DNA from: an uncultured Acidimicrobiales bacterium
GTDB lineage: Bacteria > Actinomycetota > Acidimicrobiia > Acidimicrobiales > SHLQ01
Length of the DNA: 64,000 nt
Assembly: GCA_938015295.1 (NCBI GenBank)
Contig: CALLQB010000031.1
Location: 1-64,000 of the forward strand
Direction: 5' to 3'
Notes under the pieces: generated by a model
Told to the model about the DNA's origin: nothing
Seen by the model: only the letters and a program-made list of their open reading frames with translations
Databases searched by the model: none
Made by a program: the position numbers and the translations under genes
Shown: in pieces, positions 5,625 to 64,000 of the stretch
Layout: each line of letters starts with the position of its first letter
Numbering within the stretch: the first letter of the stretch is position 1

Positions 5625-6416
5625 CTAAGACAACCAGCGCTTGCGGCGCTTGTAGTGCTTCACGTCGCGGAAACTCTTGCGTTCGCCGGACTCGTCGGTG
5701 TGCAGGCCAAGGTAGAACTCCTGCACGTCTTCATCATTGCGAAGTTTCTCGGCGTCGCCATCCATCACGATCTTGCCGGTTTCCATGATGTAACCGGTGT
5801 TGGCGATGGACAGCGCCATCGCTGCGTTCTGTTCGATCAACAGCACCGAGGTGCCTTCTGCATTGATCTCGAGGATGACGTCACGGACTTGCTGCACAAG
5901 CAGCGGTGCCAAACCAAGCGAAGGCTCATCGAGAATGAGGAGCTCGGGCTCGGCCATCATTGCTCGCCCGATTGCCAGCATCTGCTGCTCGCCGCCGGAG
6001 AGGTAGCCGGCTGTTTGATCGTGACGTTCAAGCAGCACGGGGAACAACGCCATGATGCGGTCGTAGTTCTTCTTCTCGTTGGCCCGGTTGGTGAATGCGC
6101 CGGTGGCCAGGTTCTCGTCGATGGTGAGCTCAGCGAAGATTCGCCGCCCTTCCATCACCTGAGAGATGCCGTTGTTCACGATGGCCGACGGCTTGTCCTT
6201 GGAGATGTCGCGACCCTTCCAGGTCACGGTTCCCTTGGTGGCAGCACCATCATGGACATCCAACAAGCCGGTGATAGCTCGCGACGTTGTGGTCTTACCC
6301 GCACCATTCGAGCCGAGCAGCGCAACAATGTCGCCCTCGGGCACTTCGATCGAAAGGCCGCGCAACACGAGGATGACCTCGTTGTAGACAACCTCAAGAT
6401 TCGCAACTTCGAGCAC
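5625..6416 (-). CDS. livF: ABC transporter ATP-binding protein, LivF type
   Basis: 263 aa. It has Walker A GSNGAGKTT, signature LSGGEQQML and Walker B LLILDEPSLGL. Confidence 0.9.
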   Translation of the reverse strand: MLEVANLEVVYNEVILVLRGLSIEVPEGDIVALLGSNGAGKTTTSRAITGLLDVHDGAATKGTVTWKGRDISKDKPSAIVNNGISQVMEGRRIFAELTIDENLATGAFTNRANEKKNYDRIMALFPVLLERHDQTAGYLSGGEQQMLAIGRAMMAEPELLILDEPSLGLAPLLVQQVRDVILEINAEGTSVLLIEQNAAMALSIANTGYIMETGKIVMDGDAEKLRNDEDVQEFYLGLHTDESGERKSFRDVKHYKRRKRWLS

Positions 6417-6538
6417 GGTTCCCCCAAATGGTTAGTGCGGTAGTACTTCAAACTGTGCGGTGCCTGCCCCGCCCGCCCAGGGCGGACGAAGCAGGCACCA
6501 TCAACAGCGTTGGCTATAGCAATAGCCAAGCAGCAGAT

Positions 6539-7948
6539 TTAGCTACTTGGCTCAATGCAAGGTCCGTCGAACACGTAGTCAGCGGCGACAGTGCCGATGT
6601 AGTCCTGCTCGAGCGGGATAAGGCCAGAAGAACCGGGGTTCTCCGGGGTGGCTTCGCCCATGGGAATGATGTTGAACGCCTCGGCGTCGACATCAAAGAT
6701 CCAGGTCGAACGCACGAGTGCGTCGTTGTAGTCGTTCGGCCAACTCTGCGGAGCCGACAGACCCATGAAGTCGACCTCAAGGCCGGAGGTGGCAAGAGCC
6801 ACCATGTTTTCGCGGGTCATGTCGCCAGCGTCGATCGCTGCGGTGATCAGCGTCTCGGCCATGATTCCTTCAATCCAACCAACGGTGTAACCATCGGAGA
6901 TGTTGAGGTCAGGACGACGAGCCGTCATTTCCTCAACGATTACCTCGGTGCCGGGGGCACCCCACGGAGCGTTGAAGGCTGACTGGAAGTAGTACTTATC
7001 GAACTCTGCCGCGAAGTCCGACGGCATCATGACGGGATAGCTGAAGGACGGGGTGTTACCCGACCAGGTAGCTTCGAAGCCCTGCGATACTGCGTTGCCG
7101 AAGATGTCGAGAAGCTCACCTGGGGTGAGCGTGGTCCACACGATGTTGGCACCCGAGCCGGTGAGCTCTGCGATCACACCGGTGCGGTCGTCGCCGGCAA
7201 CTGCGCCAGTTCCGTCGTACACAATTTCGATGCCGAGTTCTTCTGCAGCGATCTTGGCGCCTGCGGAGCCGTCTTCGCCGTACTCACCTGGGCGGCCAAG
7301 GATGGCAAGCTTCGGGTCATCGACCTGCGTCGACAGCCACTCAACACCATTGATGGACTCGACGCAGTACGTTGCCTGCTTCTCGAGAATCGTCGCACCA
7401 AACTCGGGGTCTGGCCACAGCGATGCCCAACTGAGAGGGATGACAAGCATGTTGTCGTCGGCTGCATCTTCAGCGATCGCTGCAGTAATTGGCGAACCGG
7501 TGTTCTCGGTGATCATAAGAACGCCCTCTTCGCTTTCCTGCGCCAGGGTCTCGTAGTTCTGGATGCCAACGTCGGTTGCATAACCGGAGTCGAGGGTTTC
7601 CATCTCAACCGTCCAGCCTTTGTAGCCACCGTTCTCGTTAAAGACTTCCCAGTAGACTTCCTGGCCAGTCACGATTTCGTTGACCAACGCAGCGAATGGA
7701 CCGGTGAGGTCGCCGTTTACGCCAACGCGAATGACCTTGTTTTCAGCGTCGACACCGAAGTCGGTGGCAACCTCGCCACCCTCTTCCATAGCACCGTCGT
7801 CACCATCGTCACCGCTACTGGACGTGTCGTCGGTGGTATCGCCACCATCGCCGCCGCCGTCGCTCGAACTGTCACCGTCACTTCCGCATGCTGCGGCGAA
7901 GAGACTGAAGACCGCTACTAGCGCTATCAACCATCGCATTCGTTTCAT
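6539..7948 (-). CDS. ABC substrate-binding lipoprotein (LivK/type-I periplasmic binding fold); ligand unknown
   Basis: The ORF is trimmed to MKRMRWLIALVAVFSLFAAACGSDG (signal peptide plus lipobox). A long acidic Asp/Ser/Gly linker follows. Its position inside a LivHMGF operon supports the call. Confidence 0.8.
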   Translation of the reverse strand: MKRMRWLIALVAVFSLFAAACGSDGDSSSDGGGDGGDTTDDTSSSGDDGDDGAMEEGGEVATDFGVDAENKVIRVGVNGDLTGPFAALVNEIVTGQEVYWEVFNENGGYKGWTVEMETLDSGYATDVGIQNYETLAQESEEGVLMITENTGSPITAAIAEDAADDNMLVIPLSWASLWPDPEFGATILEKQATYCVESINGVEWLSTQVDDPKLAILGRPGEYGEDGSAGAKIAAEELGIEIVYDGTGAVAGDDRTGVIAELTGSGANIVWTTLTPGELLDIFGNAVSQGFEATWSGNTPSFSYPVMMPSDFAAEFDKYYFQSAFNAPWGAPGTEVIVEEMTARRPDLNISDGYTVGWIEGIMAETLITAAIDAGDMTRENMVALATSGLEVDFMGLSAPQSWPNDYNDALVRSTWIFDVDAEAFNIIPMGEATPENPGSSGLIPLEQDYIGTVAADYVFDGPCIEPSS

Positions 7949-10412: not shown

Positions 10413-12283
10413 TAGTACATCGACTCCACGAGTTCGCCGAAGTGATCGATCATGGCCGATCGCTTGAGTTTCTGCGTTGCGGTGAGCTCGCCGTCTTCGT
10501 GGTCGAGCTCTTTGGGAATGAGCCGGAACTTTTTGAGTCCCTCGACCCGGGCAAACTTTTCGTTGCAGTCATCGACGATTCCCTGCACAAGGGCGACGAC
10601 CTCTTCTTTGCCTGTGAGGTCGCGGTATGTGGTGTAGGAAAGATCTTGGCGTAGTGCCCAGTCGCCAACGGTGTCGAGTTCGATGCCGATGAGCGCAGTG
10701 AGGTATTTGCGACCGTCGCCGACCACCATGGCCTCTTTCACAAACGGCGAGGCTTTGAGCGTATTTTCGATCTCGCTTGGCGAAATGTTCTTTCCGCCCG
10801 AGGTGATGATGATGTCTTTCATCCGGTCGACAATTTTGACGTGGGTGCCATCGACCCATTCGCCGACGTCGCCGGTGCGAAGCCAACCATCGTCGGTCAT
10901 GGTTTCGGCGGTCTTTTCGGGCTTGTTCCAGTAGCCGGCAAATACGCCATCGTGCGCGGTTTGAATTTCGCCAGTCTCTTCATCGATACGAAGACCAATG
11001 CCGCTGTAGGCCTCGCCGACCGTGCCGAGCTTGAGGCGCCCGGGGAAGTTGCAGGTGGCGACCGCCGAGTTCTCGGTCATGCCGTACAACTCGTAGACCT
11101 CGATGCCGATGCCCATGAAGAACTCAAGCACCTCGGGGGCGATAGGCGCTGCGCCCGAAGCTGCCCGGCGGCAGTGACGGAGGCCGACCTTTTCTTGCAT
11201 CGCCCGAAAGATCAGCGGATAGAAGATGGCGTGGAGAAGTCGACTCTTGGCGGTGTGGTTGCCACCGTTGGCCACCTTGGCCTTGCCTATGGAGCTGGCC
11301 GCCTTCATGCCGGCATTAAGCCAGATTTTTTTGAACGGTGAGGAGTCGCCGCTGCGGATGATGAGGCCAGCGTGCAGGCGCTCCCAGATGCGCGGGACAG
11401 CAAAGAACAAGGTTGGCTGGATCTCGCGAAGGTTGGCGGGAACCGTTTCGATCGACTCAGCAAAGTTCAGCGTCGGCCCACCCGCCAGCATCGTCCAGGT
11501 CGAGAAGATTCGTTCTGCAACGTGGCAAAGAGGAAGATAGGTGAGGATCTGGTCGCTCTCGTTCGGCGCCTTGCCATCGGGGTACGCGTCTTGTTGTTCG
11601 ATAATCTTTTCCATCGCGAACAACGAGTTCTTGTTGGTGAGCATGGCGCCCTTGGGCGGACCGGTTGTTCCCGAGGTGTAGACCAACGTCATGACATCGC
11701 CGTCTTCGGCTTCAGCCATACGTTGGGCCACTGCGCCAGGATTGTTCTTACGGTGCTCGCGACCCAGGTCGAGGAAGTTGTCCCAAAAGAGCAGTCGCTT
11801 GTCGTCGGCGCCAGCGAAACCACGAGGTTCGACATAGATGATGGTCTGCATCGCCGAGATCTCGTTGGGGTCGATCTCGAAGACCTTGTCGACTTGTTCC
11901 TGGTCTTCGCCGAGATGAACTTTGGAGGCTGAGTCTTTGAGGAGGTACTCGACCTCGGCTGCAGGGTTCGTGGGGTAGAGGCCAACGGTTATGCCGCGAA
12001 CGGCGACGGTCGCCAGATCGAGAATGATCCACTCGGGCCGATCTTCGGCGTGGATGGAAACGCGGTCGCCGACGTCGATGCCAAGTGCCAGTAGGCCGTG
12101 TGCCGCGGTCTCGATGAGGTCCCAAGTCTCGGCCCAGTCGTATTCAAGCCAGATGCCAAAGTCCTTTTCGCGCATCGCAATATTTTTTGGCGAACGGTCG
12201 GCCCAGCCTTTGGCAAGCGATGCGACCGTGGCAGCACCCGAACCAACGCTCGGGGTACGGACTTGTTCTTCTGCGATCGACAT
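10412..12283 (-). CDS. AMP-dependent acyl-CoA synthetase/ligase (FadD-like long-chain type)
   Basis: 623 aa. It has the AMP-binding motif YTSGTTGPPKGAMLT, GYGMTE-like YELYGMTEN, and TGDVGEW...KIVDRMKDIIITSGGKNISP. It is the first gene of the transporter operon. Confidence 0.9.
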   Translation of the reverse strand: MSIAEEQVRTPSVGSGAATVASLAKGWADRSPKNIAMREKDFGIWLEYDWAETWDLIETAAHGLLALGIDVGDRVSIHAEDRPEWIILDLATVAVRGITVGLYPTNPAAEVEYLLKDSASKVHLGEDQEQVDKVFEIDPNEISAMQTIIYVEPRGFAGADDKRLLFWDNFLDLGREHRKNNPGAVAQRMAEAEDGDVMTLVYTSGTTGPPKGAMLTNKNSLFAMEKIIEQQDAYPDGKAPNESDQILTYLPLCHVAERIFSTWTMLAGGPTLNFAESIETVPANLREIQPTLFFAVPRIWERLHAGLIIRSGDSSPFKKIWLNAGMKAASSIGKAKVANGGNHTAKSRLLHAIFYPLIFRAMQEKVGLRHCRRAASGAAPIAPEVLEFFMGIGIEVYELYGMTENSAVATCNFPGRLKLGTVGEAYSGIGLRIDEETGEIQTAHDGVFAGYWNKPEKTAETMTDDGWLRTGDVGEWVDGTHVKIVDRMKDIIITSGGKNISPSEIENTLKASPFVKEAMVVGDGRKYLTALIGIELDTVGDWALRQDLSYTTYRDLTGKEEVVALVQGIVDDCNEKFARVEGLKKFRLIPKELDHEDGELTATQKLKRSAMIDHFGELVESMY

Positions 12284-50210: not shown

Positions 50211-51590
50211 TTAGGCGTTGAGCAGCAGCCAGAGGCCGAGGCAGCTGTAGAGCACCATCACGAGCAACATCACGTACTGGCTTCGCAGCGCGTCGGTTTC
50301 GCCGCCACCTGCTGCAACAGCTAGCTGCATCGACGAGTCGTGCGCCACAAGCACCGCCCCGATATGGCCAAAAAGAATCGCCAACACTTGCACCCACGCG
50401 ATGAGATCGACACCGATAAGGGTGAAGTTGATGGTGCCATCCGCGGCGCCGAAAAGGTCCCAACCTTTGCCAGCTGGGTCCGATAGTCGGAACCAGAACG
50501 TCTGGGTTTCGTCGATCAACAGCTGTGCGTAGTGGGCGATCGCGTAGCCAAAAACTATCGGCACCAGCGACGGTGTGAACTTGTCGGTGATAAACGAAGC
50601 CTCATGACCAGTCACTTTGCATGTCCACCCGATACCGACGCCGAAAAGGGCGGTGACCAGCAGGATCGAAAGAATGAGACCCACCGTCAGTATCGCTGCG
50701 CCTCCCCATCCCGATGGGCGACCAAAAAGGTCGCGACCAGCCTCGCTCTCGACGAAGCCGTCAAAGGTCGTGCCGCCGAGAACGATAAGCAGCGTGGCAA
50801 GCGTGCCCGGAAGCACCGGCATGGTCGCCAACCCTGACATGGGAGCGCGCACACGCAACGCAGGACCCGGCGTTCCTGCGCCAGGCGAATAGCGGGCCGT
50901 TGGATCACGCTGTTCGGCGTACAAGGGCGCCATCGCAGCAACCATCGCGAACAGTGCAGAGAACGGCTCGTGCTCGGCGACCCACGCAGCCCCCCACTTC
51001 GCTGCAAGCACCACCGACACAACGAGGTGGGCAACGAGCATAAACGCCAAAACTCGCGGCGAGGTGCCCGAAGGGTGGGCTAACTCAAAGAACAAAAAGA
51101 CGAACAGCCCGGCCGCCGCTGGGAGATGCCCCAGACCCGCTGGCGGATCGGCCACCGACAGACCCGCACGAACCGCAAGTGCTTCTACGCCGCGAGCGAT
51201 GGTACCGACCGGATTGATTGCTTGCCAGAGGTCGCCGACGAGCCCGGCGAGAAGTTGAGCGCCGACCCACACGATGACGTACAAGGTGACCGGCAGAATG
51301 TTCTCTGCCTCGGAATCGGTACCGAACAGTCCCGCCCAGATCGCAATGCCCAGCAAGCCGAGAGCCGCTGCCCGACCGATTGCTAACACTAGTCGAATGG
51401 CGAACGAACCGCTGTCGAGCAGCTGCCGGCCAGAAGCTGCTCGAACAAGTCGAGGTTCCTTCCAGAGCACACCGAGGGCAACAAAGGAGAGCCCCAGCGC
51501 AAGAGCCGCCGCCCAGGTAAACATCCAGAGAGGCAACGGCAGATCGCCTCGGGACCCCACACCGTGGGCAAGCAGGTAGCTAGACATCAT
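50211..51590 (-). CDS. Polytopic membrane protein (about 12 TM), unknown function
   Basis: 459 aa, highly hydrophobic, with N-terminus HGVGSRGDLPLPLW. It lies 41 nt downstream of the His-rich lipoprotein gene. Confidence 0.55.
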   Translation of the reverse strand: MMSSYLLAHGVGSRGDLPLPLWMFTWAAALALGLSFVALGVLWKEPRLVRAASGRQLLDSGSFAIRLVLAIGRAAALGLLGIAIWAGLFGTDSEAENILPVTLYVIVWVGAQLLAGLVGDLWQAINPVGTIARGVEALAVRAGLSVADPPAGLGHLPAAAGLFVFLFFELAHPSGTSPRVLAFMLVAHLVVSVVLAAKWGAAWVAEHEPFSALFAMVAAMAPLYAEQRDPTARYSPGAGTPGPALRVRAPMSGLATMPVLPGTLATLLIVLGGTTFDGFVESEAGRDLFGRPSGWGGAAILTVGLILSILLVTALFGVGIGWTCKVTGHEASFITDKFTPSLVPIVFGYAIAHYAQLLIDETQTFWFRLSDPAGKGWDLFGAADGTINFTLIGVDLIAWVQVLAILFGHIGAVLVAHDSSMQLAVAAGGGETDALRSQYVMLLVMVLYSCLGLWLLLNA

Positions 51591-51631: not shown

Positions 51632-52846
51632 TCATGAGGCACTGAGCTCGAAGAGGAGCAGGCCTGAATCTTCAAGCTCAATCTCGACGATTCCGGGGAT
51701 AGCGGCAACAAAGTCGATAGTCGACGCCTCGCCCTCCACCAGATCGGCGAAAATGTCGTAACCATGGACATGCACATGGTCGGCAGTATCGCTGGTCACC
51801 ACAAGCCGCACCATGTCGCCGACGCCGACCTCGACCCGGTCGGTCAGTGAACCCGCTGACATAACCATGACGGTGCCGTCGTTGTAGGTGGCTTCGACGA
51901 GCACGGGTGCAACCGTGTCGCTCGCTACCGACTCGTCGCCTGTTCCCGCAGCGGAATCGTTCGAGACAACAACCGTGGCTCGCACCGGCTCGCCATCGCG
52001 CACGTACGTAGCGTGGTTGTTAGCGCTCAGCTCGACCTCGACGGTGTGCTCGCCATCGCCCAACTCAGGAACGTGAAACCACGTGCCGTAGATACGCCCT
52101 TGTTTCACGCCGTCAATAAACAGATGTAGGTGCCCTTCATTAGCCACGTGCTCGCCGCCTACCTTTTCAGGGGCCAGGTCGAAGTGCGAAAGCGACACCG
52201 CAAAATTGTTGCCGTCGCCAGCCTTCGCAACCGGAACCCGGGTGAGCGCCACACTCGCCTCCCCGCCGTCAACGGTGTTGGCAGCGTCGACAGTGTCATG
52301 GTCATGCGCCGCCGCCTCGCCGACTACAACTACCTGTGATGCTGAGATTCGCTCGCCCCCGGTCGCATACGGAGCATGAGTATTTGCATTGAGTTCGACT
52401 TCGATCGTGTGTTCACCGGCGCTGAGATTGTCGACGTGAATCCACTCGTTGTAGAACCGCTGCACTTTTTCACCATCGACGATGAGGTGCATGTGTCCCT
52501 CGCCGTCAACATGTGCAGTGCTAACGCTTTCTGGAGCGATTGTGAGATTTGTTACCTCGACTCTCACGTTGACCCCTGATTTGGCGTCGGGCGAAGCCTC
52601 GATCGACACGGCCGGTGCGGCATCACTTGCCACGTCGATCATTTCGCTATGGGCCAAATCATGGTCGTGACCGCCCTCGGCCGCGTTCGTACTTTCTTCT
52701 TTTTCTTCTTCGGCGGCTGGGATCGACTCAGCTGCTCGGGTGGTGGTCGTAGCATCGCTTCCGCACGCGGCAACAGCCAGCGCGAGCGCGATCAAGCAAA
52801 CGACAGAACGCCCGAAATTGGGAGTGTTCATTGGTTGTCCTTGCAA
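51632..52846 (-). CDS. His-rich lipoprotein with two tandem DUF4399-like domains and a C-terminal cupredoxin-like domain (putative metal binding)
   Basis: It has a lipobox LALAVAAC. There is an internal ~95-aa duplication carrying EGHMHLIVDG / EGHLHLFIDG and GEHTIEVEL / GEHTVEVEL. It also has HDHD motifs and HVHVHGYD near the C-terminus. Confidence 0.65.
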   Translation of the reverse strand: MQGQPMNTPNFGRSVVCLIALALAVAACGSDATTTTRAAESIPAAEEEKEESTNAAEGGHDHDLAHSEMIDVASDAAPAVSIEASPDAKSGVNVRVEVTNLTIAPESVSTAHVDGEGHMHLIVDGEKVQRFYNEWIHVDNLSAGEHTIEVELNANTHAPYATGGERISASQVVVVGEAAAHDHDTVDAANTVDGGEASVALTRVPVAKAGDGNNFAVSLSHFDLAPEKVGGEHVANEGHLHLFIDGVKQGRIYGTWFHVPELGDGEHTVEVELSANNHATYVRDGEPVRATVVVSNDSAAGTGDESVASDTVAPVLVEATYNDGTVMVMSAGSLTDRVEVGVGDMVRLVVTSDTADHVHVHGYDIFADLVEGEASTIDFVAAIPGIVEIELEDSGLLLFELSAS

Positions 52847-52861
52847 GGTTGATGGATTCGG

Positions 52862-53431
52862 TCAGAAGTGAACGAATCGCATCGGGGGACCTCGCGGGGC
52901 GGCTGGCGAGACGAGCAAAACTGCCAGAATCGTTTGCTCCGTCGAGCTCGTGAACAGACGACTTCGGAGAACGGGACGAACGACCAGCTGTAAGACCAGG
53001 TCAACAACAAACTCTCCAACGCTTCGCAGTGTGCGGAACATTGCCGAGACAACCAACGGAGCAATGCACACGCCAAGAATCAGCGCTGGGTTTTGGAGGC
53101 CCTCGACGACCGACGTTCCCTTGATGGCGCCCTCGGTCAACTCCTGCGCAACAAAGAGCGCTGCAGCGGTGGCCGAGATCGGCAACGTTCGCACCGGAGC
53201 AGCGACCCCAAGATTTCTAACCTGACGAAGAATGAATACTGTGGCGGCAAGCACCGCCAGGGGTGTTGCGAGCGCCCACTGGACAGAAACATGACCATGT
53301 TCGCCGAGAGCGTCGGCCCGATCAACGAAGGATGGATACACAACCAGGTACGCAAGCTGGTGCACAACAAGCGCAGCCAACGCTGCGAATGTCAGTCCTG
53401 CCGCAAGGCTCTTCAGCCGATGTACCTGCAC
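52862..53431 (-). CDS. Membrane protein, unknown function
   Basis: 189 aa with 4-5 hydrophobic segments. It lies 15 nt upstream of the lipoprotein gene on the same strand. Confidence 0.5.
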   Translation of the reverse strand: MQVHRLKSLAAGLTFAALAALVVHQLAYLVVYPSFVDRADALGEHGHVSVQWALATPLAVLAATVFILRQVRNLGVAAPVRTLPISATAAALFVAQELTEGAIKGTSVVEGLQNPALILGVCIAPLVVSAMFRTLRSVGEFVVDLVLQLVVRPVLRSRLFTSSTEQTILAVLLVSPAAPRGPPMRFVHF

Positions 53432-53491
53432 ATCACAAGTGTATGCCCTTGCCGGGGTGTCGATCGATCAGTCTGGTGTCACACTGGACAC

Positions 53492-54403
53492 GTGGTTGTA
53501 CGAGTCCCGCACACACGTCGCAACATTTGTGCCCCAGCGCTTCTTTTGGCTCTAGCGATAGCTGTCGGCGCTTGCTCATCGGAGAAACCCGAGCTGGCCG
53601 ACCAACCTGCAGCACTAGCCAACGACGTCATCAACACCACCAGTGCGTCCACGGCAGCACCACCGCCGACTTCGTCGACCGCTCCTCCGCCAACCAGCGC
53701 TCCGGACGAACCCATAGTCACCACCACAAGCGTCGAGGTTGCCGCCGAAGACGAACTCGTGCGACGCCCCGAGACCAACCCCGGCACCAACGAAGGAAAT
53801 CATTGGCTCGGCCGCAATCAGATGAGCGACGACCTTGTCGAGCTTGTGTGGTCGCCAGTCGAAGGCTCCGCAGTGACCTACCGCATCTATCGCACCAAGA
53901 TCACCGCTGCGCTCGATCGTGAGGCGCTTGAACTGACCCCAGAACTGCTGATCTTTGAAGGATCCGAACCCGACGTCTCGATCTTCGTCGACACCCAAGT
54001 CGAGTCCGGCACCTTCTACACCTACATCTTGTCTGTCGAGGCCGACGGCGTGTTGCTCGACCGACGCTGGGCAAACGCGTTGACGGTCACCGACACCGAC
54101 CCACCTACGCCGATCACCGATCTGAGCGGTGAGCTCATCAATGGTGAGGTTGTGTTGCGTTGGGAGCCATCGTCAGACAATGTCGAATTCGCCGCGTACG
54201 CAGTGTCCACGGTCGACGCTGAAGGCAAGCTCACCTACCTCGGTGGCGGAGCAGACCAGGCGCTGAGCTCGTTCCTCGACACCCGACCCGACGCCGCGGC
54301 CGCAGGCTCTGGCGAGCCCGGCACTATCACCTACGCCGTCCAAGCGGTCGACTTCCACGACAACCGCACCGAACCAGCGCTCATCACCATCGTCTTGAAA
54401 TAG
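53492..54403 (+). CDS. Lipoprotein with fibronectin type III-like repeats
   Basis: The ORF 53093..54403 is trimmed to the GTG at 53492. It has a lipobox LAIAVGAC and a Pro/Thr/Ser linker. The patterns LVWSPVEGSAVTYRIYR and VLRWEPSSDNVEFAAYAV are FN3-like. Confidence 0.6.
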   Translation: MVVRVPHTRRNICAPALLLALAIAVGACSSEKPELADQPAALANDVINTTSASTAAPPPTSSTAPPPTSAPDEPIVTTTSVEVAAEDELVRRPETNPGTNEGNHWLGRNQMSDDLVELVWSPVEGSAVTYRIYRTKITAALDREALELTPELLIFEGSEPDVSIFVDTQVESGTFYTYILSVEADGVLLDRRWANALTVTDTDPPTPITDLSGELINGEVVLRWEPSSDNVEFAAYAVSTVDAEGKLTYLGGGADQALSSFLDTRPDAAAAGSGEPGTITYAVQAVDFHDNRTEPALITIVLK

Positions 54404-54497
54404 GGCTGTCCTGCAATGAGGCTGTCTTGAAATAGGGCTGTCCTGCAATGAGGCTGTCTTGAAATAGGGCTGTCCTGCAATAGGGCTGTCCTGTTAC
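54392..54497. repeat. Tandem repeat: 32-bp unit x3.3, equivalent to six alternating 16-bp units (AGGGCTGTCCTGCAAT / GAGGCTGTCTTGAAAT)
   Basis: Read directly: the period is exactly 32 (unit starts at 54392, 54424 and 54456). It begins in the last codons of the FN3 lipoprotein gene and ends 55 nt before the URC1-like start. Confidence 0.95.
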
Positions 54498-54552
54498 CAA
54501 CACCCATTTTCGGCCGATACTAGAACTATCTAGCAAGTGATTCGAGGCTGCC

Positions 54553-55788
54553 ATGGATCCCCACGTCGTTCTAACTTCTCACACCGCACATAAGTCTGAA
54601 CGCTTTGTGGACGTGAACTGGGGCGCGCCGGATCCTGCCACCCGGGGCCCCGTGGTTGGCACCATCTCGAACAAGGCCGACCGAAATGCGATTGGCAGCC
54701 ACGGCGGCAGCTATTCGATCTACCGGGCGCTCTCCATTGCGCAAGGTGCGTTTCCGCTCGATCATCGGCCCGATCTCACCGATACCGAACCCACTACCGA
54801 TATCGAGCCGCAGCCCTCGTGGGGACGAGAGGGCGCCATTGTTTCGCTCGACCCGTGGGGCGCAAACATCAAGCGCTATTTCGGCGAGCACCTCGAAAAT
54901 GGCTACAACGTGCAGCCGACGATCGCAGTCACCCAGGCACACCTGCAACTCCCCGAGATTCGCGAAGCGATTGCCGACGGACGTCTCGAGGTCGACGACG
55001 AATTTGTTCGTGCACAAGGTGACGTTGCCGTGACGAAGGTAGCGATCGATCCGGTATGGCATCTGCCGTCGATGGCCAGTCGCTTCGGGATCGAAGAACC
55101 CACCCTGCGTCGGGTGCTCTATATGGAGACGGGCGGAATGTATCCCGAGCTTGTAACTCGACCCGATCTCGAAATCTTGCTTCCGCCAATCGGCAGCACC
55201 ACAGCCTACGTCTTTGGGGATCCGGCCGACCTCGCCAAACCCGAGGTGGAGTTGACACTTCGGGTACACGATGAATGCAACGGGTCCGACGTTTTTGGCT
55301 CTGACATCTGCACGTGTCGGCCCTATCTCACATGGGCCATCGAGGACGCCGCCCGCACCGCGCAACGAGGTGGAGTCGGCCTTGTTGTGTACTACCGGAA
55401 AGAAGGCCGAGCGCTTGGCGAGGTCACCAAGTTCATGGTGTACAACGCCCGCAAACGACAAGACGGCGGCGACATGGCGTCGACCTACTTCGAACGCACT
55501 GAATGTGTCGCTGGGGTCCAAGACGCGAGGTTCCAGGAGCTCATGCCCGACGTGTTGCAGTTTTTCGGCATCACAAAGATCCACAATCTCCACTCGATGA
55601 GCAACATGAAGTACGACGCTATAGCTGGCGGCGGCATCGACGTGGTCAACCGCCTGAGTCTCCCGTCCGAGTTGATCCCGGCCGATGCGGTCGTGGAAAT
55701 CGAAGCGAAGAAGGCTGCTGGCTATTTCACCGACGAAGAGATCGTTGGCGACCTCGACAGTGTCGTTGGACGGACCCTCGACGAATGA
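54553..55788 (+). CDS. GTP cyclohydrolase II-like protein of the URC1 type
   Basis: 411 aa. RVHDECNGSDVFGSDICTCRPYL matches the RibA Zn/GTP motif (RVHSEC..GDVFGS..CDC). The extra N-terminal ~230 aa and the adjacency to DUF1688 and upp are typical of URC1 homologues. Confidence 0.75.
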   Translation: MDPHVVLTSHTAHKSERFVDVNWGAPDPATRGPVVGTISNKADRNAIGSHGGSYSIYRALSIAQGAFPLDHRPDLTDTEPTTDIEPQPSWGREGAIVSLDPWGANIKRYFGEHLENGYNVQPTIAVTQAHLQLPEIREAIADGRLEVDDEFVRAQGDVAVTKVAIDPVWHLPSMASRFGIEEPTLRRVLYMETGGMYPELVTRPDLEILLPPIGSTTAYVFGDPADLAKPEVELTLRVHDECNGSDVFGSDICTCRPYLTWAIEDAARTAQRGGVGLVVYYRKEGRALGEVTKFMVYNARKRQDGGDMASTYFERTECVAGVQDARFQELMPDVLQFFGITKIHNLHSMSNMKYDAIAGGGIDVVNRLSLPSELIPADAVVEIEAKKAAGYFTDEEIVGDLDSVVGRTLDE

Positions 55789-56993
55789 GCATCTTTGCCT
55801 CGTACGACCAGTTACTGAACGCCGAGGCGGTTCGGTCGCAAGCGGCTCGTGTCACGCAGCGTGTGCGAGACGGCGCCGGGCTCTTTGTGCTTCACGACGA
55901 CGCCATCGATGGCTGTGCGCAAAAGGTGGTCGACATCACGCTCGCCCGCTACCCCGACCTCGACATTCCCTATCACTCGCGGTGGCGTCATTTCTCCACA
56001 CCGGCAGCAACCGCACTCGAATCGCGGCTCTTCGAAGTGCTCGGTGAACAAGATCCGCAGGATGCGGCTCGTCTTGGGTTTGATCTTGTCATCCCGTCGG
56101 TGTTGCTCGACGCCGGAGCCGGGCCGGATTGGGGATTCCAGGCACCGGATGCCGATTCGCTCATTGGACGCAGCGAAGGGCTTGGGCTTGCTTCGCTCGA
56201 CATGTTTCTTGGCGGCGCATTCTCGACCAGCGGCGAAGCCCGTACCGATGCTGCAGCGCTGTCCGGTCTCACCGACGACGACCTCCGCCGCGGCTTTCAA
56301 GTAGACGACCAAAACCCACTTGTTGGCCTCGATGGGCGTCTGAACCTCCTGCGATCACTCGGCGCAACGATGATCGCCCGTCCGGATCTGTTCCCAACCG
56401 GCCGCCCCGGCGATCTGGTGACTCGCCTTACCGATGCGTTTGGCGACGAGATTCCGGCTCGCGAGATTCTGGGACTTGTCCTCGAGGCACTCTCCCCGAT
56501 TTGGCCCTCAGGTCGCTCAGAAGACACCGATGGCGTCGACCTTGGCGATGCTTGGCCCTATGCACCGTTTGGCGACGGACCCGACGCCATCGTGCCGTTT
56601 CACAAACTCTCTCAGTGGCTGACCTATTCGCTCGCCGAAACGTGCGAAAAGGGTGGGTTGACCGTCGTTGGTCTCGACGTGCTGACCGGTCTCCCCGAGT
56701 ACCGAAACGGCGGCCTGCTGTACGAAACCGGTGTGATCTCGCTGCGCGACGCCGTCCTGGCCGGATCGCTTCATACGCCCGGGAGCGAACTTATTGTCGA
56801 ATGGCGCGCCCTCACCATCAGCATCCTGGACGAGGTAGCCGACCTTGTGCGCGCCAAACTATCGCGTCCCGAGATGCTTCTCGCCGAGATCCTCGAAGGC
56901 GGGACATGGGCCGCTGGCCGCTCGCTTGCCTTCGATCGAACCCCCGATGGTTCACCCCCACTTCACCTCGATAGCGATGGGACGGTTTTTTGA
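55785..56993 (+). CDS. DUF1688 (URC4-like) protein
   Basis: The ATG at 55785 overlaps the upstream TGA. MSIFASYDQLLNAEAVR...YHSRWRHF... matches my recollection of the URC4/DUF1688 family. The assignment is from memory. Confidence 0.65.
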   Translation: MSIFASYDQLLNAEAVRSQAARVTQRVRDGAGLFVLHDDAIDGCAQKVVDITLARYPDLDIPYHSRWRHFSTPAATALESRLFEVLGEQDPQDAARLGFDLVIPSVLLDAGAGPDWGFQAPDADSLIGRSEGLGLASLDMFLGGAFSTSGEARTDAAALSGLTDDDLRRGFQVDDQNPLVGLDGRLNLLRSLGATMIARPDLFPTGRPGDLVTRLTDAFGDEIPAREILGLVLEALSPIWPSGRSEDTDGVDLGDAWPYAPFGDGPDAIVPFHKLSQWLTYSLAETCEKGGLTVVGLDVLTGLPEYRNGGLLYETGVISLRDAVLAGSLHTPGSELIVEWRALTISILDEVADLVRAKLSRPEMLLAEILEGGTWAAGRSLAFDRTPDGSPPLHLDSDGTVF

Positions 56994-57622
56994 TGTCGTT
57001 GCAGGTCCACACGATTACGCACCCGCTCGCGCAACAAGCGCTAGGTCAGGTGCGAAACAAAGAGACACCGAATCCGATTTTCCGCGCGGCTGTGGCCAAC
57101 CTGACCCGACAACTGGTGTACGCCGCAACGTCGGATCTCACGACCCGCACCGAACATATTTCGACGCCGTTCGCCGAGACCACCGTAGAGACGATCGACC
57201 AGCTGGTGTCGCCGATCGCTATCTTGCGGTCGGGCGCAGCGATGCTCGAAACCGCGATTGACACGCTGCCAGACGGACAAGCGGGCCACTTCGGCGTGTA
57301 TCACGACAAACGCGTCGGCGCGACGGTCGAGTATTACCTGAAACTTCCCGACGAGATCGCGAAGAGCCGCGTGCTGCTGCTCGACCCGGCAATCGGAACC
57401 GGCAAGACAGCGATCGCTGCCGTCGCCCGACTCCAAGAGTTCGGTGTTACCGACATTTGTTTTCTCACCCTTGTTGCGTCCAGTGGCGGACTCAACCTCA
57501 TCGGCGAGCACTTTCCTAATGTCGCGGTGTATGCGATTGCCACCATCGACAAGGTTGGGCCCAATGGTTATCTACTTCCGGGCATGGGCGACTTCGGCGA
57601 TCGGTACTACGGATCGAAGTAG
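56993..57622 (+). CDS. upp: Uracil phosphoribosyltransferase
   Basis: HPLAQQALGQVRNKET is Upp-like (HPL....L..LRD..T). It has the PRPP loop VLLLDPAIGTGKTA and C-terminal YLLPGMGDFGDRYYG. The start overlaps the upstream stop (TGATG). Confidence 0.9.
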   Translation: MSLQVHTITHPLAQQALGQVRNKETPNPIFRAAVANLTRQLVYAATSDLTTRTEHISTPFAETTVETIDQLVSPIAILRSGAAMLETAIDTLPDGQAGHFGVYHDKRVGATVEYYLKLPDEIAKSRVLLLDPAIGTGKTAIAAVARLQEFGVTDICFLTLVASSGGLNLIGEHFPNVAVYAIATIDKVGPNGYLLPGMGDFGDRYYGSK

Positions 57623-57713
57623 CCGCCTGATCGTGGAGCGGGCGGCAGAACTGGAGCGAGGTTTTTGACGACGGCTTTCGTGACGCCAACGATCACCGCC
57701 TAGTTTCAGCGGT

Positions 57714-58952
57714 ATGGCTATCGATTTCACTCTTTCTCCCGAGCACGAAGAAATTCGCGACCGCATCCGCACATTTATTAACGATGTGGTGAAGCCGGTC
57801 GAGCACACGATCGAGGGAGCCGATGGTGGCGAAGGCCTCACCGGTCGGGCCCGGATCGAGGCGTTGATCGAGCTTCGCAAGAAGGCGTACAAAGCTGGCC
57901 TGTGGCTTCCGCACATGCCGGTTGAAGTAGGCGGCATGGGTCTCGGACATGTGGCCATGGCGATGGTGCAGGCCGAGGCCGCAAAGTCTTACTACGGGCC
58001 CTGGGTGCTCAACGCACAGGCGCCCGACGAAGGCAACATGCACACTCTGCATCACTGGGCCACCGATGAGCAGAAGGAGAAGTACCTCAAGCCTCTGCTT
58101 GAGGGAAACACCTGGTCTTGTTTCGCCATGACCGAACCCGAGGTTGCCGGATCGGACCCGACACTCATTCAAACCAACGCCTACGAAGACGGCGACGAGT
58201 GGGTTATCAACGGCCACAAGTGGTTCATCTCGAACGCCCATCGAGCCAACTTCGCGATCCTTGTTGCCCGCACTGAAGAAAACCCCGACATTCCCCAAGC
58301 CGCAAACAGTGCGTTCCTGGTCGACCTTCCCAGTGAGGGCTGGAACGAGGTCCGCCAGATCGAAACCATGCACGGCGGCACTGGCCACAGCGAAATCCTC
58401 ATCGAGGACCTGCGCGTACACAAGGACCAAATGCTGGGCGGGCGCGGCCAAGGTCACCTACTCGGGCAATACCGTCTGGGGCCGGCCCGTCTCGCGCACT
58501 GCATGCGATGGATTAGCCAGGCCGAAACTGCCCTCGACATGATGGTCGACCGCTCGCTCAACCGGTTCTCTCACGGCTCGCTCCTGGCCGAAAAGCAGGG
58601 CATCCAGTGGATGATTGCCGACTCGGCGATGGAGCTCTACCAAGGCAAATTGATGGTGCTTCATGCAGCATCGAAGATCGACGCCGGCGAAGACTTCAAG
58701 GCCGAGGTCTCGATGGCCAAACACTTTGTGGCCAACTCGCTCGGGCGCATCATCGACCGGTCGATTCAGGTGCACGGTGCACTCGGCTACTCGACCGACA
58801 CTCCACTGGCGCACATGTACCAACACGCCCGCTGGGCGCGTTTCGCTGACGGAGCCGACGAAGTCCACCAGATGCGTATCGCCCAGCGAACTATCGCTGC
58901 GTACACCGATGACGGCACCACAAAGCGAGCAACCGGCAACCTGCCTATCTAG
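57714..58952 (+). CDS. Acyl-CoA dehydrogenase
   Basis: 412 aa. It has FAMTEPEVAGSD, INGHKWFISNA and QVHGALGYS. Confidence 0.9.
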   Translation: MAIDFTLSPEHEEIRDRIRTFINDVVKPVEHTIEGADGGEGLTGRARIEALIELRKKAYKAGLWLPHMPVEVGGMGLGHVAMAMVQAEAAKSYYGPWVLNAQAPDEGNMHTLHHWATDEQKEKYLKPLLEGNTWSCFAMTEPEVAGSDPTLIQTNAYEDGDEWVINGHKWFISNAHRANFAILVARTEENPDIPQAANSAFLVDLPSEGWNEVRQIETMHGGTGHSEILIEDLRVHKDQMLGGRGQGHLLGQYRLGPARLAHCMRWISQAETALDMMVDRSLNRFSHGSLLAEKQGIQWMIADSAMELYQGKLMVLHAASKIDAGEDFKAEVSMAKHFVANSLGRIIDRSIQVHGALGYSTDTPLAHMYQHARWARFADGADEVHQMRIAQRTIAAYTDDGTTKRATGNLPI

Positions 58953-59754: not shown

Positions 59755-61320
59755 ATGTCCGCTGCTCTCGTCGTTGCGGCGTTGCTCGCGGTGTCTCTCG
59801 CTTTTGTCAGTCCGGCTGCCGCTCAGGCGTCGAACTGCTCGTCTAGTCAGGTCGACCTGTCGACGGCGAACTGGTCGCAGGTCGCTCAACTCAACGGTAT
59901 GACCGACCGTGCAGCCAAGAAACTCGTCGCACTGCGAACCAAGGGAAAGATTGCGCAACTCGAGGATCTGCGGATTCTGCGCATCAACGACCGCCGCTTC
60001 CTCAGCTTCGCCAACGACGCCCGCTCGTGTTTCGACGGCCGTGCGGTGGCAGAACTGTTCCCCGATGCCATCTGTGCCACAGCAGACGCTCGCATCAATA
60101 CCGGCACCACTGGCTCGTTGGCCGAACGCATTGGCTGGAAAAACGCCCGACCGCTGGTAGCTGCACGTCCGATCGATAACCTCAGCGATGTCTCGGCAAT
60201 TCCCGAGCGTGGCAAGAAGATCCTCGGCCGGCTCGCTCGCAAGGGTGGCACGTGCCTCGACCCGGTCGCGCCCAACGCCGCAACTTCAATGGGTGCCGGC
60301 ACGTTCCTGGTTGGCTCACAGATTGTGCCCGGCCGCTACGTCGCCAAGAACGTGAGCGGTTGTTACTGGGAGCGCGGATCCGCCAAGACCAGCACGTCCG
60401 CAGCGGTCATTGCGTCGAAGTCCATCGGCAACGCCCAGCAGGTCATTGCCGATATTGCTTCGTCTGACACCAGCTTCACGTCCACTGGATGTGGCACCTG
60501 GGTTGCCGTCGCAGATGCGAACCTTTCAACGATCGACGGGGTGCCGGGCGATGGCGACTGGCTCATCGGCACACAGGTCACCGCGGGCATCTACCGGGCA
60601 TCGAGCCCCGCGGGCTGCACATGGGCACGTCAAGCTGGCCTAAGCGGCCAACCAACCGACCCGATCGACACAAGCCAGCTTCCGAGCAAACTCACCCTCA
60701 TCGACCTGCGCTCGAGCGACGCAGCCTTCACCAGCACCGGGTGCGGCACATGGGAGCTTGTGCCCGCCGCCTGCATGAACCAGCTTGAAGCGATCCATCC
60801 GGCCATCCCTGAGGTGAAACCTCACATCTACGGCGTTAGCGACTCGGTCCTGCTCTCCACCCGCTGGGAGATGGAGATGACCATGAAGAGCTTTACGTTC
60901 AACTGGGGTGGCTTTGGCGGTCTCAACACGCGCGACGCTCCACCGATTGTCGAGATCGAGATCGGCGAGCAGAAGGTGACCGGCACAACCGTCATCGTTG
61001 GCCTTGGGCACAACTACCGCGGCTCGATGCTGGCCGACTTCCCGGGCTACATCGACACGATGATCAACACCTTCCCGAGCCATGTCGATCGGGTCATCTG
61101 GGTCGCACCGAGCCGGTTCAACAGTACGATGCCCGATGTCGTCAGAATGCTGAACGAGGCAACAGCACGTTGGCCACAGATGGAGATCGCCGACTTCTGG
61201 ATTGAAGGCGACGCCCAGAACCACCCCGAGTGGTTCGAGGACGACCTGCATCACGATGCGGTTGGCCGTCAGGCAATATCTAACTACCTCAACGACAAGC
61301 TGCTGTTCCCCTGCGGCTAA
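59755..61320 (+). CDS. Secreted multidomain protein: ComEA-like helix-hairpin-helix motifs, two Cys-containing repeats and a C-terminal SGNH-type hydrolase
   Basis: It has the signal peptide MSAALVVAALLAVSLAFVSPAAAQA and an HhH-like DLSTANWSQVAQLNGMTDRAAKKLVALR. The repeat G.Y......GC.W.R....FTSTGCGTW occurs twice. SGNH blocks are YGVSDSV, GLGHN and DDLHH. Confidence 0.6.
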   Translation: MSAALVVAALLAVSLAFVSPAAAQASNCSSSQVDLSTANWSQVAQLNGMTDRAAKKLVALRTKGKIAQLEDLRILRINDRRFLSFANDARSCFDGRAVAELFPDAICATADARINTGTTGSLAERIGWKNARPLVAARPIDNLSDVSAIPERGKKILGRLARKGGTCLDPVAPNAATSMGAGTFLVGSQIVPGRYVAKNVSGCYWERGSAKTSTSAAVIASKSIGNAQQVIADIASSDTSFTSTGCGTWVAVADANLSTIDGVPGDGDWLIGTQVTAGIYRASSPAGCTWARQAGLSGQPTDPIDTSQLPSKLTLIDLRSSDAAFTSTGCGTWELVPAACMNQLEAIHPAIPEVKPHIYGVSDSVLLSTRWEMEMTMKSFTFNWGGFGGLNTRDAPPIVEIEIGEQKVTGTTVIVGLGHNYRGSMLADFPGYIDTMINTFPSHVDRVIWVAPSRFNSTMPDVVRMLNEATARWPQMEIADFWIEGDAQNHPEWFEDDLHHDAVGRQAISNYLNDKLLFPCG

Positions 61321-63566
61321 CGAGTTGCGCTGCTTTGCAGCGCTGCTAACACCCGACTGGGTGTTAACGGAAATTCGTTAAACCACACCCCGGTGGCATC
61401 GTGCACTGCTGCGATGACCGCCGGGGCGTAGGTGATATAGGGCATCTCGGCCATTCCTCGCACGCCCCAGGGGCCAAGGGGATCAGCCAACTCGAGGATC
61501 ACGCTCTCGACCTGTTCGGGGATATCGCCGATGCCGGGGATCAGGTACTGCGACAGCCTCGGGTTGAGGATGTGGCCTTCTTCGACCACAAGGTTTTCGC
61601 TGAGAACATAGCCATGCGCCTGCACCACTGCGCCTTCGATCTGCCCCTGCACCAGACGAGGGTTGATCGCCCGGCCCACATCGTGAGTACTGATTACTCT
61701 GTCAACCCGGATATGGCCGGTTTCGATGTCAACCGAGACGTCCACCGCCTGCGCCATGTAGCCGTAGGCGAAGTTCGGTTGACCGACACCGGTTTCGGGG
61801 TCGAGCGTCTCGGTCGGGGGTGGCGTAAAGCGAAACTTGCCTACCGCAGGTCGGTCGCCATCGCGCCACGCTTTTTCGGCTTCTTCGGCTGCCCCAAGGA
61901 TCGAGTTTCCGGCCATCCAGCTCAGCCGAGACGCCGACGCTGAACCTGAGTCGCCCGTAACCGCCGTATCGGAGAACGTGCCCCGAACGGCTTCGAGCGG
62001 AACTCCCGTGGCCTCGGCAGTCATCTGCAGGCATGCCTGGTGCATACCCTGACCAACCTCGGCGCCCGAATGGAACACCTCAGCACCGGTTGGAACATCG
62101 TCGGCGTCGGTACCAAAGAGGTGAATCTCGGCCTCGCAACGCTCGGGGAAACCGAAGCTGAAGCCGACATTCTTGTAGCCGACGGCGAACCCGCGTCCGT
62201 GTTTCACCGCAGCAGGTTCGCACGGCAGTGAGGCCACCGGGTTGAAGGGTGCAGGTTGTGAAATCTCCGAGGCCGACGCGGCACAGGCATCGATCACCTG
62301 CGGCAACGTAACGCCGGGAGGCATGATTGCCTGGGTGATACCTTCGCTTCCGTCTCGAAGCGTATTGATGCGTCGGATCTCAACCGGGTCGATACCGGTC
62401 GCTTCGGCGAGTTTGTTCATCTGTGTTTCGGCCACAAAGGCACCCTGGGGCCCACCAAACCCCCGGAAGGCGCCACCAGGAACAGCGTTGGTGTACACCG
62501 CATGGCTATCGATGCGGGCGTGAGGAATCTCGTACGCTCCGCCGACGCTGAGGTGGGCGTTTCCGAGCACCTTGTTCGACGTGTAGTTGTAGGCACCAGC
62601 GTCGAGCCAAACATCGGCCTCAACGGCCGTTATCTTTCCTTCGCTGGTCGCACCTAGCCGAGCAAAGATCGTCCCCCGGTGGCGTTTGTGGTGGCCGATG
62701 ATCGATTCTTCACGCGACCACCGACAATGCACCGGGCGGTCGATGCCGATCGCCCGTAGACGTTGCGCCGCGAGGGCAAGAACGATCTGCAAGGTCATGT
62801 CTTCTTTGCCGCCGAACGCTCCCCCGATAGCTGCGTACACCACGCGGACCTGCTCGTCGTCGAGATCGAGTGCGTGGGCTATTTGTTCGCGGTCTTCATG
62901 GGTCCACTGGCCACTTGTTTCAACCGTCAGCCGGCCTTGTTCGTCAACCCACGCGGTGGCCGCCTCGACCTGCAGATAGGCGTGCTCCTGATACGGAAGT
63001 TCGTAGCGCCCCTCGACGACAACGTCGGCTTCGGCCCAGCCGCGATCGATGTCGCCTTTGCGGATTTTGAGATCGTAGTACGAGTTGGTGCCAGCCTCTT
63101 CGTGTACCAAGGTGTCGTCGGATCGAGCTGCCTCGATGTCGGCGACGACCGGTAATTGTTCCCACTCCACAACGAGTGCCTCGGCTCCGGCGGTGGCTTG
63201 CTCGGCCGTTTCGGCAACAACAATGGCAATCTTGTCGGCTTCCCAGCGGCTGACGTCGGACGCAACCGTCGACCGGCCGGTAGCCCCCAGCCCGACCAGC
63301 ACCGGCTGGTCGAACATGGTGAGGCCATATTCATTTACCGGCACATCGGCTGCGGTGAGCACGAGGACGACACCGGGTGTTGCCTCAGCCAGCGACGTCT
63401 CGAGCGACAGCATGCGAGCGTGCGGTTGATTCGAAAAGACGATCTTCGCAAAAAGTGCGTCGGGAGCGACACCGTCAGCCGGATACCGGGCAGCGCCCGT
63501 GACTTTGCCAGCAGCGTCAAAGCGAATAGGCGACTGACCAACCGGACCGGAAGTTTGGGCGCTCAT
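61317..63566 (-). CDS. Molybdopterin-binding large subunit of a xanthine-dehydrogenase/aldehyde-oxidase family enzyme (CoxL-like)
   Basis: The ORF is trimmed to the ATG at 63566 ([28 protein letters not shown]). It has GGAFGGKE and the typical family length of 749 aa. The ATGA overlaps the small-subunit stop. Confidence 0.88.
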
Positions 63567-64000
63567 GCGATCGTCGCGTTGTTGTCGGTGACCGACGCAG
63601 CTCGTTGAGCGGCCGCGGACTTCACCGCAGCGATGATGGGGTAATACCCCGTACAGCGACACAAGTTGCCGCTCAGGGCCATCTTGATTTGGTCGTCGGT
63701 GGGGTTCGGGATCTCGTCGAGCAGCGCCGAAGCGGCAACGATGAACCCCGGAATACAGAACCCGCATTGGGCGGCAAACTCATCGATGAACGCCTGCTGG
63801 ATGTGGTCGAGTGAGTCGTCGTCGCCAAGATGTTCGATAGTCACTACCGCCGAGCCCCCAGCTTGCGCGGCAGGCACTAGGCAACTCATGACCGCCGCTC
63901 CATCGAGCCGGACAGTGCACGCACCGCATTCGCCTTCGGCACATCCTTCCTTTACGCCAGCGAACCCGATGCCTGCGGATCCTGCTCGCTCATGAACGAC
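63563..64000 (-). CDS. [2Fe-2S]-binding small subunit (CoxS-like), truncated at the right edge
   Basis: My own translation from position 64000 gives ...[27 protein letters not shown]...CGFCIPGF...CRCTGY. Both Fe-S cluster motifs are present. Confidence 0.88.

Follow-up and report, generated by a model that had tools for sequence, protein, structure and literature searches.

A translationally coupled URC-type operon in an uncultured, probably marine Acidimicrobiales bacterium and a putative Qng1-like N-glycosylase function for its DUF1688 protein, URC4

The stretch of DNA analyzed here (the window, 64,000 nucleotides; positions 1 to 64,000 of contig CALLQB010000031.1, assembly GCA_938015295.1, from an uncultured Acidimicrobiales bacterium) carries at 54553-57622 three overlapping genes, whose products are homologs of URC1, URC4, and URC6 of the yeast URC pathway of uracil degradation. 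We assign them with strong confidence to a URC-type operon, and the explanation that best accounts for our results overall, which we consider likely, is that this translationally coupled operon would make uracil available as a nitrogen source through breakdown at the nucleotide level. For the product of the middle gene, DUF1688/URC4, we lean, if only just, toward a new branch of Qng1-type N-glycosylases that would act on ribosylurea 5'-phosphate with a glutamate in place of the aspartate of Qng1 and with a free C-terminal carboxylate in the active site. The corresponding reaction, in which ribosylurea 5'-phosphate would yield urea and ribose 5-phosphate, is one that we favor somewhat.

All three genes lie on the plus strand. 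The URC1-type gene (54553-55788) encodes 411 residues, the URC4 gene (55785-56993) 402 residues, and the upp gene (56993-57622) 210 residues. The first two genes overlap start to stop in the ATGA at 55785-55788. The second junction reads TTGATG at 56990-56995, with the TGA stop of URC4 at 56991-56993 and the ATG start of upp at 56993, a one-base overlap; an alternative TTG start for upp is present at 56990. These coordinates and overlaps agree with a preliminary description of the stretch, which had located ATGA at 55785 and TGATG at 56991, and our searches with profile hidden Markov models from Pfam and NCBIfam bore out the gene identities and the URC1/URC4/URC6 homology that it had proposed. 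The first protein combines PF12471 (GTP_CH_N, 2e-74) with PF00925 (GTP_cyclohydro2, 1.8e-14), the second matches PF07958 over its full length (3e-120, 402 bits) and is indeed a DUF1688 protein, and the third matches PF14681 (UPRTase, uracil phosphoribosyltransferase; 3e-51, 174 bits). The stretch occurs in sequencing runs of marine metagenomes, and DNA contigs from four such runs, all of one study, cover all three genes.

The same gene order is widespread. In a pattern scan of a collection with one genome per species, at least 600 stretches contained the module, and the counts given below refer to the best 80 loci. By tblastn, 74 of these loci have URC1, URC4, and upp arranged in this order on a single strand, two of the six exceptions being truncated by contig ends, and the loci span Actinomycetota, Pseudomonadota (alpha, beta, and gamma), Bdellovibrionota, Cyanobacteriota, Myxococcota, and Acidobacteriota. 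When all open reading frames (ORFs) of the 80 loci were clustered, the recurrent neighbors were an aldehyde dehydrogenase directly 5' of the trio (24 loci), a uridine kinase 3' of it (20 loci), an amidohydrolase (17 loci), a PnrA-type nucleoside importer of the ATP-binding cassette (ABC) type (about 11 loci), and a TetR regulator with a YcdC/RutR C-terminal domain (7 loci). These neighbors fit pyrimidine uptake and breakdown; none of them occurs in the window. In one Cellvibrionaceae locus (L033), two upp-like genes lie back to back on opposite strands (6221-6844 and 6872-7501) right after URC4. The abstract of the 2008 report on the URC pathway by Andersen and colleagues is said to state the linkage with a UPRTase gene in bacteria. 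The URC1-URC4-upp linkage found here is the one of that report (Andersen et al., J Mol Biol, PMID 18550080), which PMC3869809 credits with a URC1/URC4 operon conserved in both bacteria and fungi, and "URC4/urg3 family protein" is a name in use at NCBI. The present operon is one more copy of an already described bacterial operon, and the compact bacterial arrangement, in which the preliminary description saw a good handle for solving the enzymology, is not a new handle.

The first gene product can be connected to a crystallized enzyme. The chains of PDB entries 7EJ3 and 7EEV match the URC1-type protein with 575 bits over residues 4-410, and an AlphaFold model of the protein, built on 32 homologs with a predicted local distance difference test (pLDDT) of 79, retrieved the same two structures with Foldseek at 65% identity and a template modeling score (TM) of 0.85-0.87. 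The titles of these entries, "Structure of UTP cyclohydrolase" (2021 release) and "UTP cyclohydrolase," name an enzyme acting on uridine triphosphate (UTP). This enzyme, UrcA, comes from a different organism; it has the two-domain build and the catalytic residues of the window protein, with 65% identity over the full length, and we regard the URC1-type protein as its ortholog, for which UTP is the predicted substrate and cyclohydrolase the predicted activity. The view of the preliminary description that the chemistry of the URC1 step was unresolved is therefore superseded. The article on UTP cyclohydrolase by Zhang et al. (ACS Catal 2021;11:8895) is one of the two references given for the URC pathway in PMC12507026.

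A reading of the first gene as a riboflavin-pathway RibA paralog, and of the cluster as noncatabolic, could be based on its PF00925 domain and on the label "GTP cyclohydrolase II," which it receives from NF005536 (679 bits, with a cut-off of 403) and which many records carry. We find this scarcely tenable. The protein falls far below the cut-offs of the RibA models (56 versus 148 bits for NF001591 and 48 versus 206 bits for TIGR00505), its closest solved structure is a UTP cyclohydrolase, and linkage of its gene with DUF1688 and upp extends across six phyla. Of the two outcomes that the preliminary description had named as refuting it, a middle gene without a DUF1688 match and a first gene that groups with RibA, neither was obtained. 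Moreover, a separate ribBA-type gene on another contig of the genome (236 bits on PF00925, 412-residue frame) marks the URC1-type gene as an extra and, judging from these scores, non-riboflavin paralog. With E. coli RibA (2BZ0) the protein has in common the fold of the catalytic domain, three cysteines, a tyrosine, and an arginine: C242/C253/C255, Y297, and R326, all invariant among the 32 homologs, align with C54/C65/C67, Y105, and R128 of RibA, which are the zinc ligands (cysteines) and catalytic residues (Tyr and Arg) of that enzyme. It differs from RibA in its 190-residue GTP_CH_N domain, in its low identity (19%), and in its genomic context.

Based on these assignments, we propose that the UPRTase of the operon would convert uracil and phosphoribosyl pyrophosphate to uridine monophosphate (UMP) and that housekeeping kinases would raise UMP to UTP. 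The URC1-type enzyme would then strip pyrophosphate from UTP and hydrolytically open the uracil ring at its zinc site. GTP cyclohydrolase II performs both of its hydrolytic steps at one zinc site, and by analogy with this enzyme the products would be malonate semialdehyde and N-ribosylurea 5'-phosphate. The latter compound would be the substrate of URC4.

For URC4, we found no published activity in the open literature. The nearest named relatives of the DUF1688 protein come from Acidimicrobiales metagenome bins, and phmmer found no match for it among PDB sequences at E values up to 1. Its AlphaFold (AF2) model, built on 61 homologs, has a pLDDT of 94 and a predicted template modeling score (pTM) of 0.92. 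An exhaustive structure search with this model placed human and Sphaerobacter Qng1 on top (Z scores of 27.7 and 26.9, with 321 and 311 aligned residues and a root mean square deviation of 3.2), the next tier being helix-hairpin-helix (HhH) DNA glycosylases at a Z score of about 10, and Foldseek matched the model to Qng1 at 1e-9. Qng1 (DUF2419, PF10343) is a queuosine 5'-phosphate N-glycosylase, and the fold that it has in common with the predicted DUF1688 model (Z of 27) extends over the whole chain.

The sequence alignments point to the same active site. When the DUF1688 family profile was run against the PDB with hmmsearch, only Qng1 chains were matched (E value of 0.15), and the profile alignment pairs the F-H-K motif of DUF1688 (K274) with F-Y-K199 and the E-Y-R motif (E305/Y306/R307) with D231-Y232-K233 of the Sphaerobacter protein (StQng1), the numbering of which is confirmed by the PDB entry of a D231N mutant. 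A profile-profile alignment with nine Qng1-family sequences of the same phylum again produced the K274 and E305 pairs (E value of 2.5e-5), and hhalign gave a DUF1688-Qng1 probability of 72-75%. A permissive alignment of the C-terminal half sets E371, W375, and R379 opposite the Qng1 motif D-x3-W-x3-Q, in which the partner residues are as far from the C terminus as D298, W302, and Q306 are in StQng1. K274, E305, Y306, R307, E371, W375, R379, and F402 at the end of the chain show no or almost no variation in DUF1688; K274 and E305 are invariant in the 61 homologs, and the two phosphate-contact positions, R307 and R379, are invariant arginines. All 120 stand-alone DUF1688 homologs listed end in T-[VLI]-F. 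As for Qng1 itself, 301 genomes of the same phylum hold nine PF10343 genes (L122-L130), all of which end in a C-terminal tyrosine, and two of these (L127 and L130) lie within considerably longer open frames (643 and 521 residues).

In Qng1, D231 probably serves as the nucleophile, the ribose is positioned by K199 and Y232, K233 and Q306 touch the 5'-phosphate, and D298 and W302 grip the base; the active site also includes the free C-terminal carboxylate with the invariant Tyr323, C-terminal tags inactivate the enzyme, and the preferred substrate is the 5'-monophosphate (PMC9881137). The DUF1688 equivalents are E305 for D231, K274 for K199, Y306 for Y232, R307 for K233, R379 for Q306, E371 and W375 for D298 and W302, and F402 for Tyr323. 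DUF1688 thus keeps every listed position in conservative form, with Glu for Asp, Arg for Lys and for Gln, and Phe for the terminal Tyr. Projected onto the model, E305 would act as the nucleophile or stabilize an oxocarbenium ion, K274 and Y306 would hold the ribose, R307 and R379 the 5'-phosphate, and E371 and W375 the ureido group, and the free carboxylate of F402 would close the site, a structural role that we draw by parallel with the free C terminus of Qng1. Such an enzyme would cut the C1'-N glycosidic bond and release urea and ribose 5-phosphate, the leaving group being urea and not queuine. DUF1688 is about 80 residues longer than Qng1, and we do not file it as a member of the Qng1 family; we describe it only as probably working like one. 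Since its genomic context is pyrimidine catabolism, we do not expect it to act on queuosine 5'-phosphate.

Domain fusions bear on the same point. Our survey matched 233 longer DUF1688 relatives, and the following figures concern the 120 that were listed (705-2010 residues). URC1-URC4 fusions account for 118 of them, always in the order URC1 then URC4, the linker having a median length of about 8 residues and DUF1688 standing at the extreme C terminus; in 119 of the 120 long proteins, the DUF1688 part reaches the last residue and ends in Phe. This fixed order with a free second C terminus would be expected because a Qng1-like active site would demand a free C terminus. The same demand would also account for the order of the genes, the ATGA overlap being a source from which such fusions can arise, and, if the proposed site is correct, it explains why, in 119 of the 120 listed long forms, no domain follows DUF1688. 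Fusions of roughly 720-870 residues are common in marine protist transcriptomes (MMETSP, EukProt) and also occur in the actinobacterium Hoyosella (P0131, P0138), and the fusion proteins (P0124-P0243) are commonly annotated plainly as "GTP cyclohydrolase II." A predicted complex of the separate URC1-type and DUF1688 proteins (score 0.00, mark 0.32) counts neither for nor against an association.

Because arginines occupy both phosphate-contact positions, we prefer the 5'-phosphate as the true substrate of URC4. The usual drawing of the yeast pathway has URC4 take unphosphorylated ribosylurea, formed after a putative phosphatase, to urea and ribose; on genetic evidence from yeast, ribosylurea precedes URC4, and in the yeast model it is degraded by URC4 to urea (PMC7530994). 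We judge this route unlikely here, given that the residues contacting the 5'-phosphate in Qng1, K233 and Q306, correspond to the invariant R307 and R379 of DUF1688, that Qng1 prefers a 5'-monophosphate, that no phosphatase is among the recurrent neighbors of the trio in the 80 loci, and that fusion to the nucleotide-level URC1 suggests direct hand-over. The fusions would equally fit the hand-over of a labile intermediate, as would be required if the cyclohydrolase carried out only the first ring opening and URC4 acted on a ureidoacrylate ribotide or another intermediate, without being a simple urea-releasing glycosylase. The exact product of the UTP cyclohydrolase is itself drawn by analogy here, which leaves room for this scheme. 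The precedent of GTP cyclohydrolase II, whose catalytic residues are all kept, speaks for both hydrolyses at one site, and we consider partial opening quite improbable. A Qng1-like site is built for C1'-N cleavage and would also fit a larger ureido leaving group, so that partial opening is a variant of the glycosylase mechanism and not its opposite.

For the fate of the products, we turned to the rest of the genome. The preliminary description had found no urea carboxylase or allophanate hydrolase next to the trio; this is correct, and neither enzyme, nor urea amidolyase as a whole, exceeds the curated cut-offs anywhere in the assembly, which is 94.7% complete, gene absences in it being provisional. 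A urease alpha subunit is encoded (904 bits), and urea released by the glycosylase proposed above would go to this nickel urease and not to urea amidolyase, with ammonia as the product. Malonate semialdehyde would be converted to acetyl-coenzyme A (acetyl-CoA) by an mmsA-type malonate/methylmalonate-semialdehyde dehydrogenase encoded elsewhere in the genome (704 bits). RutA and dihydropyrimidinase fall below their cut-offs in the same assembly, and neither of the other ring-opening routes tested, Rut and reductive, is recognizable in it. Two upp genes are present, and the linked one, only 29% identical to the other (contig C57), appears to be a divergent paralog; on NCBIfam, its product scores 178 bits with NF001097 (cut-off of 114) and 169 with TIGR01091 (cut-off of 208). 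Two relatives also carry two upp genes, and no strong upp besides the linked one is present in one Bradyrhizobium and two Bdellovibrio genomes.

The three core proteins are thus those of the yeast URC pathway, which comprises URC1, URC4, and URC6 with URC3,5 and URC8 in Lachancea (Saccharomyces) kluyveri and urg1/urg3 in S. pombe. The version in this genome would differ in that urea is handled by urease instead of the urea amidolyase URC3,5 and in that the probable destination of the three-carbon product is a CoA-acylating mmsA-type dehydrogenase instead of the URC8 reductase. It also differs in the translational coupling of its genes, and no transcription factor or permease is linked to them.

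Several points weigh against a uracil-to-urea operon with a Qng1-like URC4. The operon of this organism is known from sequence and predicted models, the product assigned to the UTP cyclohydrolase comes from the analogy with GTP cyclohydrolase II, and the yeast model names ribosylurea without a phosphate as the URC4 substrate (PMC7530994). At the sequence level, DUF1688 and Qng1 resemble each other weakly: PF10343 (Q_salvage) gives 16.3 bits, below its cut-off of 25, in line with the hmmsearch E value and the hhalign probability given above. The Qng1-like assignment leans mainly on the predicted fold, and the catalytic Asp of Qng1 is Glu (E305) in DUF1688. A search of the assembly returned no NCS2 uracil permease that could serve for uptake. 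Finally, 3 of the 80 loci, all from cyanobacteria, have DUF1688 without URC1 within 8 kb, and for this reason DUF1688 may also work in a second context outside the URC pathway. These loci (L045 and L059 as a whole, and L086 at 10475-11086) belong to Elainellaceae, Leptolyngbyaceae, and Okeania, and two of the three are also without upp.

The operon appears to end with upp. As stated in the preliminary description, an acyl-CoA dehydrogenase gene follows (57714-58952, plus strand), and one could imagine that the operon runs on into it and that its product processes the three-carbon compound: the gene is on the same strand, separated by a gap of 91 bp, and no canonical terminator was seen between it and upp. 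We regard this as very improbable. Four genomes from the same genus or family have the trio alone in common, with all flanks differing; this gene stands beside the trio in none of them, nor does any other flanking gene of the window. In two of the four marine runs, a contig follows the operon as far as 57624, two bases beyond the upp stop, before turning into unrelated sequence; co-occurring strains carry the trio in another downstream context. A GC-rich 8-bp hairpin that lacks a U-run is predicted directly 3' of the upp stop (57622-57646, plus strand), with a nonsignificant folding z-score of -0.40, and is a weak candidate for the operon end. The acyl-CoA dehydrogenase gene is a chance neighbor outside the operon. 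Because relatives share only the trio and the contigs of co-occurring strains diverge at 57624, the trio is a self-contained accessory module. Its identity to the four relatives is 83-92% for URC1, 53-76% for URC4, and 62-82% for upp, and DUF1688 occurs in 6 of 41 genomes, namely that of the window and 40 relatives.

With the module in at least about 600 stretches of the one-genome-per-species collection, the operon itself adds little, beyond the suggestion that an uncultured marine actinobacterium may obtain nitrogen from uracil by way of urea and urease. Of wider value is URC4, for which the structural match, residue conservation, and the architecture of the fusions together define one specific reaction that can be tested. 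If correct, this reaction would complete the fourth pyrimidine-degradation pathway, in which it is the last step without an assignment.

The surroundings of the operon yielded a few further observations. At 61317-63767 (minus strand), 3.7 kb downstream, the window encodes an 816-residue molybdopterin-binding subunit of the xanthine dehydrogenase/aldehyde oxidase family. Upstream, three ORFs at 50211-51590 (minus), 51632-52846 (minus), and 53093-54403 (plus) match no Pfam family above the cut-off and are not kept beside the trio in relatives; the one nearest to the trio, of 436 residues, gave only a weak fibronectin-III lead (score of 0.88), with nothing to connect it to the operon. Rfam models run over 53900-58000 revealed no riboswitch and, opposite the coding strand, only a subthreshold PtaRNA1 hit (24 bits; gathering score of 47), and a promoter scan 5' of the operon found no sigma-70-like site with a model that may not suit this phylum. 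Between the nearest upstream ORF and URC1, Tandem Repeats Finder (TRF) detected a tandem repeat at 54392-54490, assigned to neither strand, that stops 62 bp 5' of the URC1 start codon. It has a 32-bp unit in 3.1 copies with a 16-bp subperiod (97% matches, score of 184); the copy number is unverified, the public contigs from the four marine runs breaking inside the repeat. No further copies were found elsewhere in the genome, and we do not call the repeat an operator because its motif is absent 5' of the trio in the other loci fetched. The 32-bp repeat could be either an array of operators or a minisatellite without significance; its 18-mer core is present 4 times where 0.03 occurrences would be expected.

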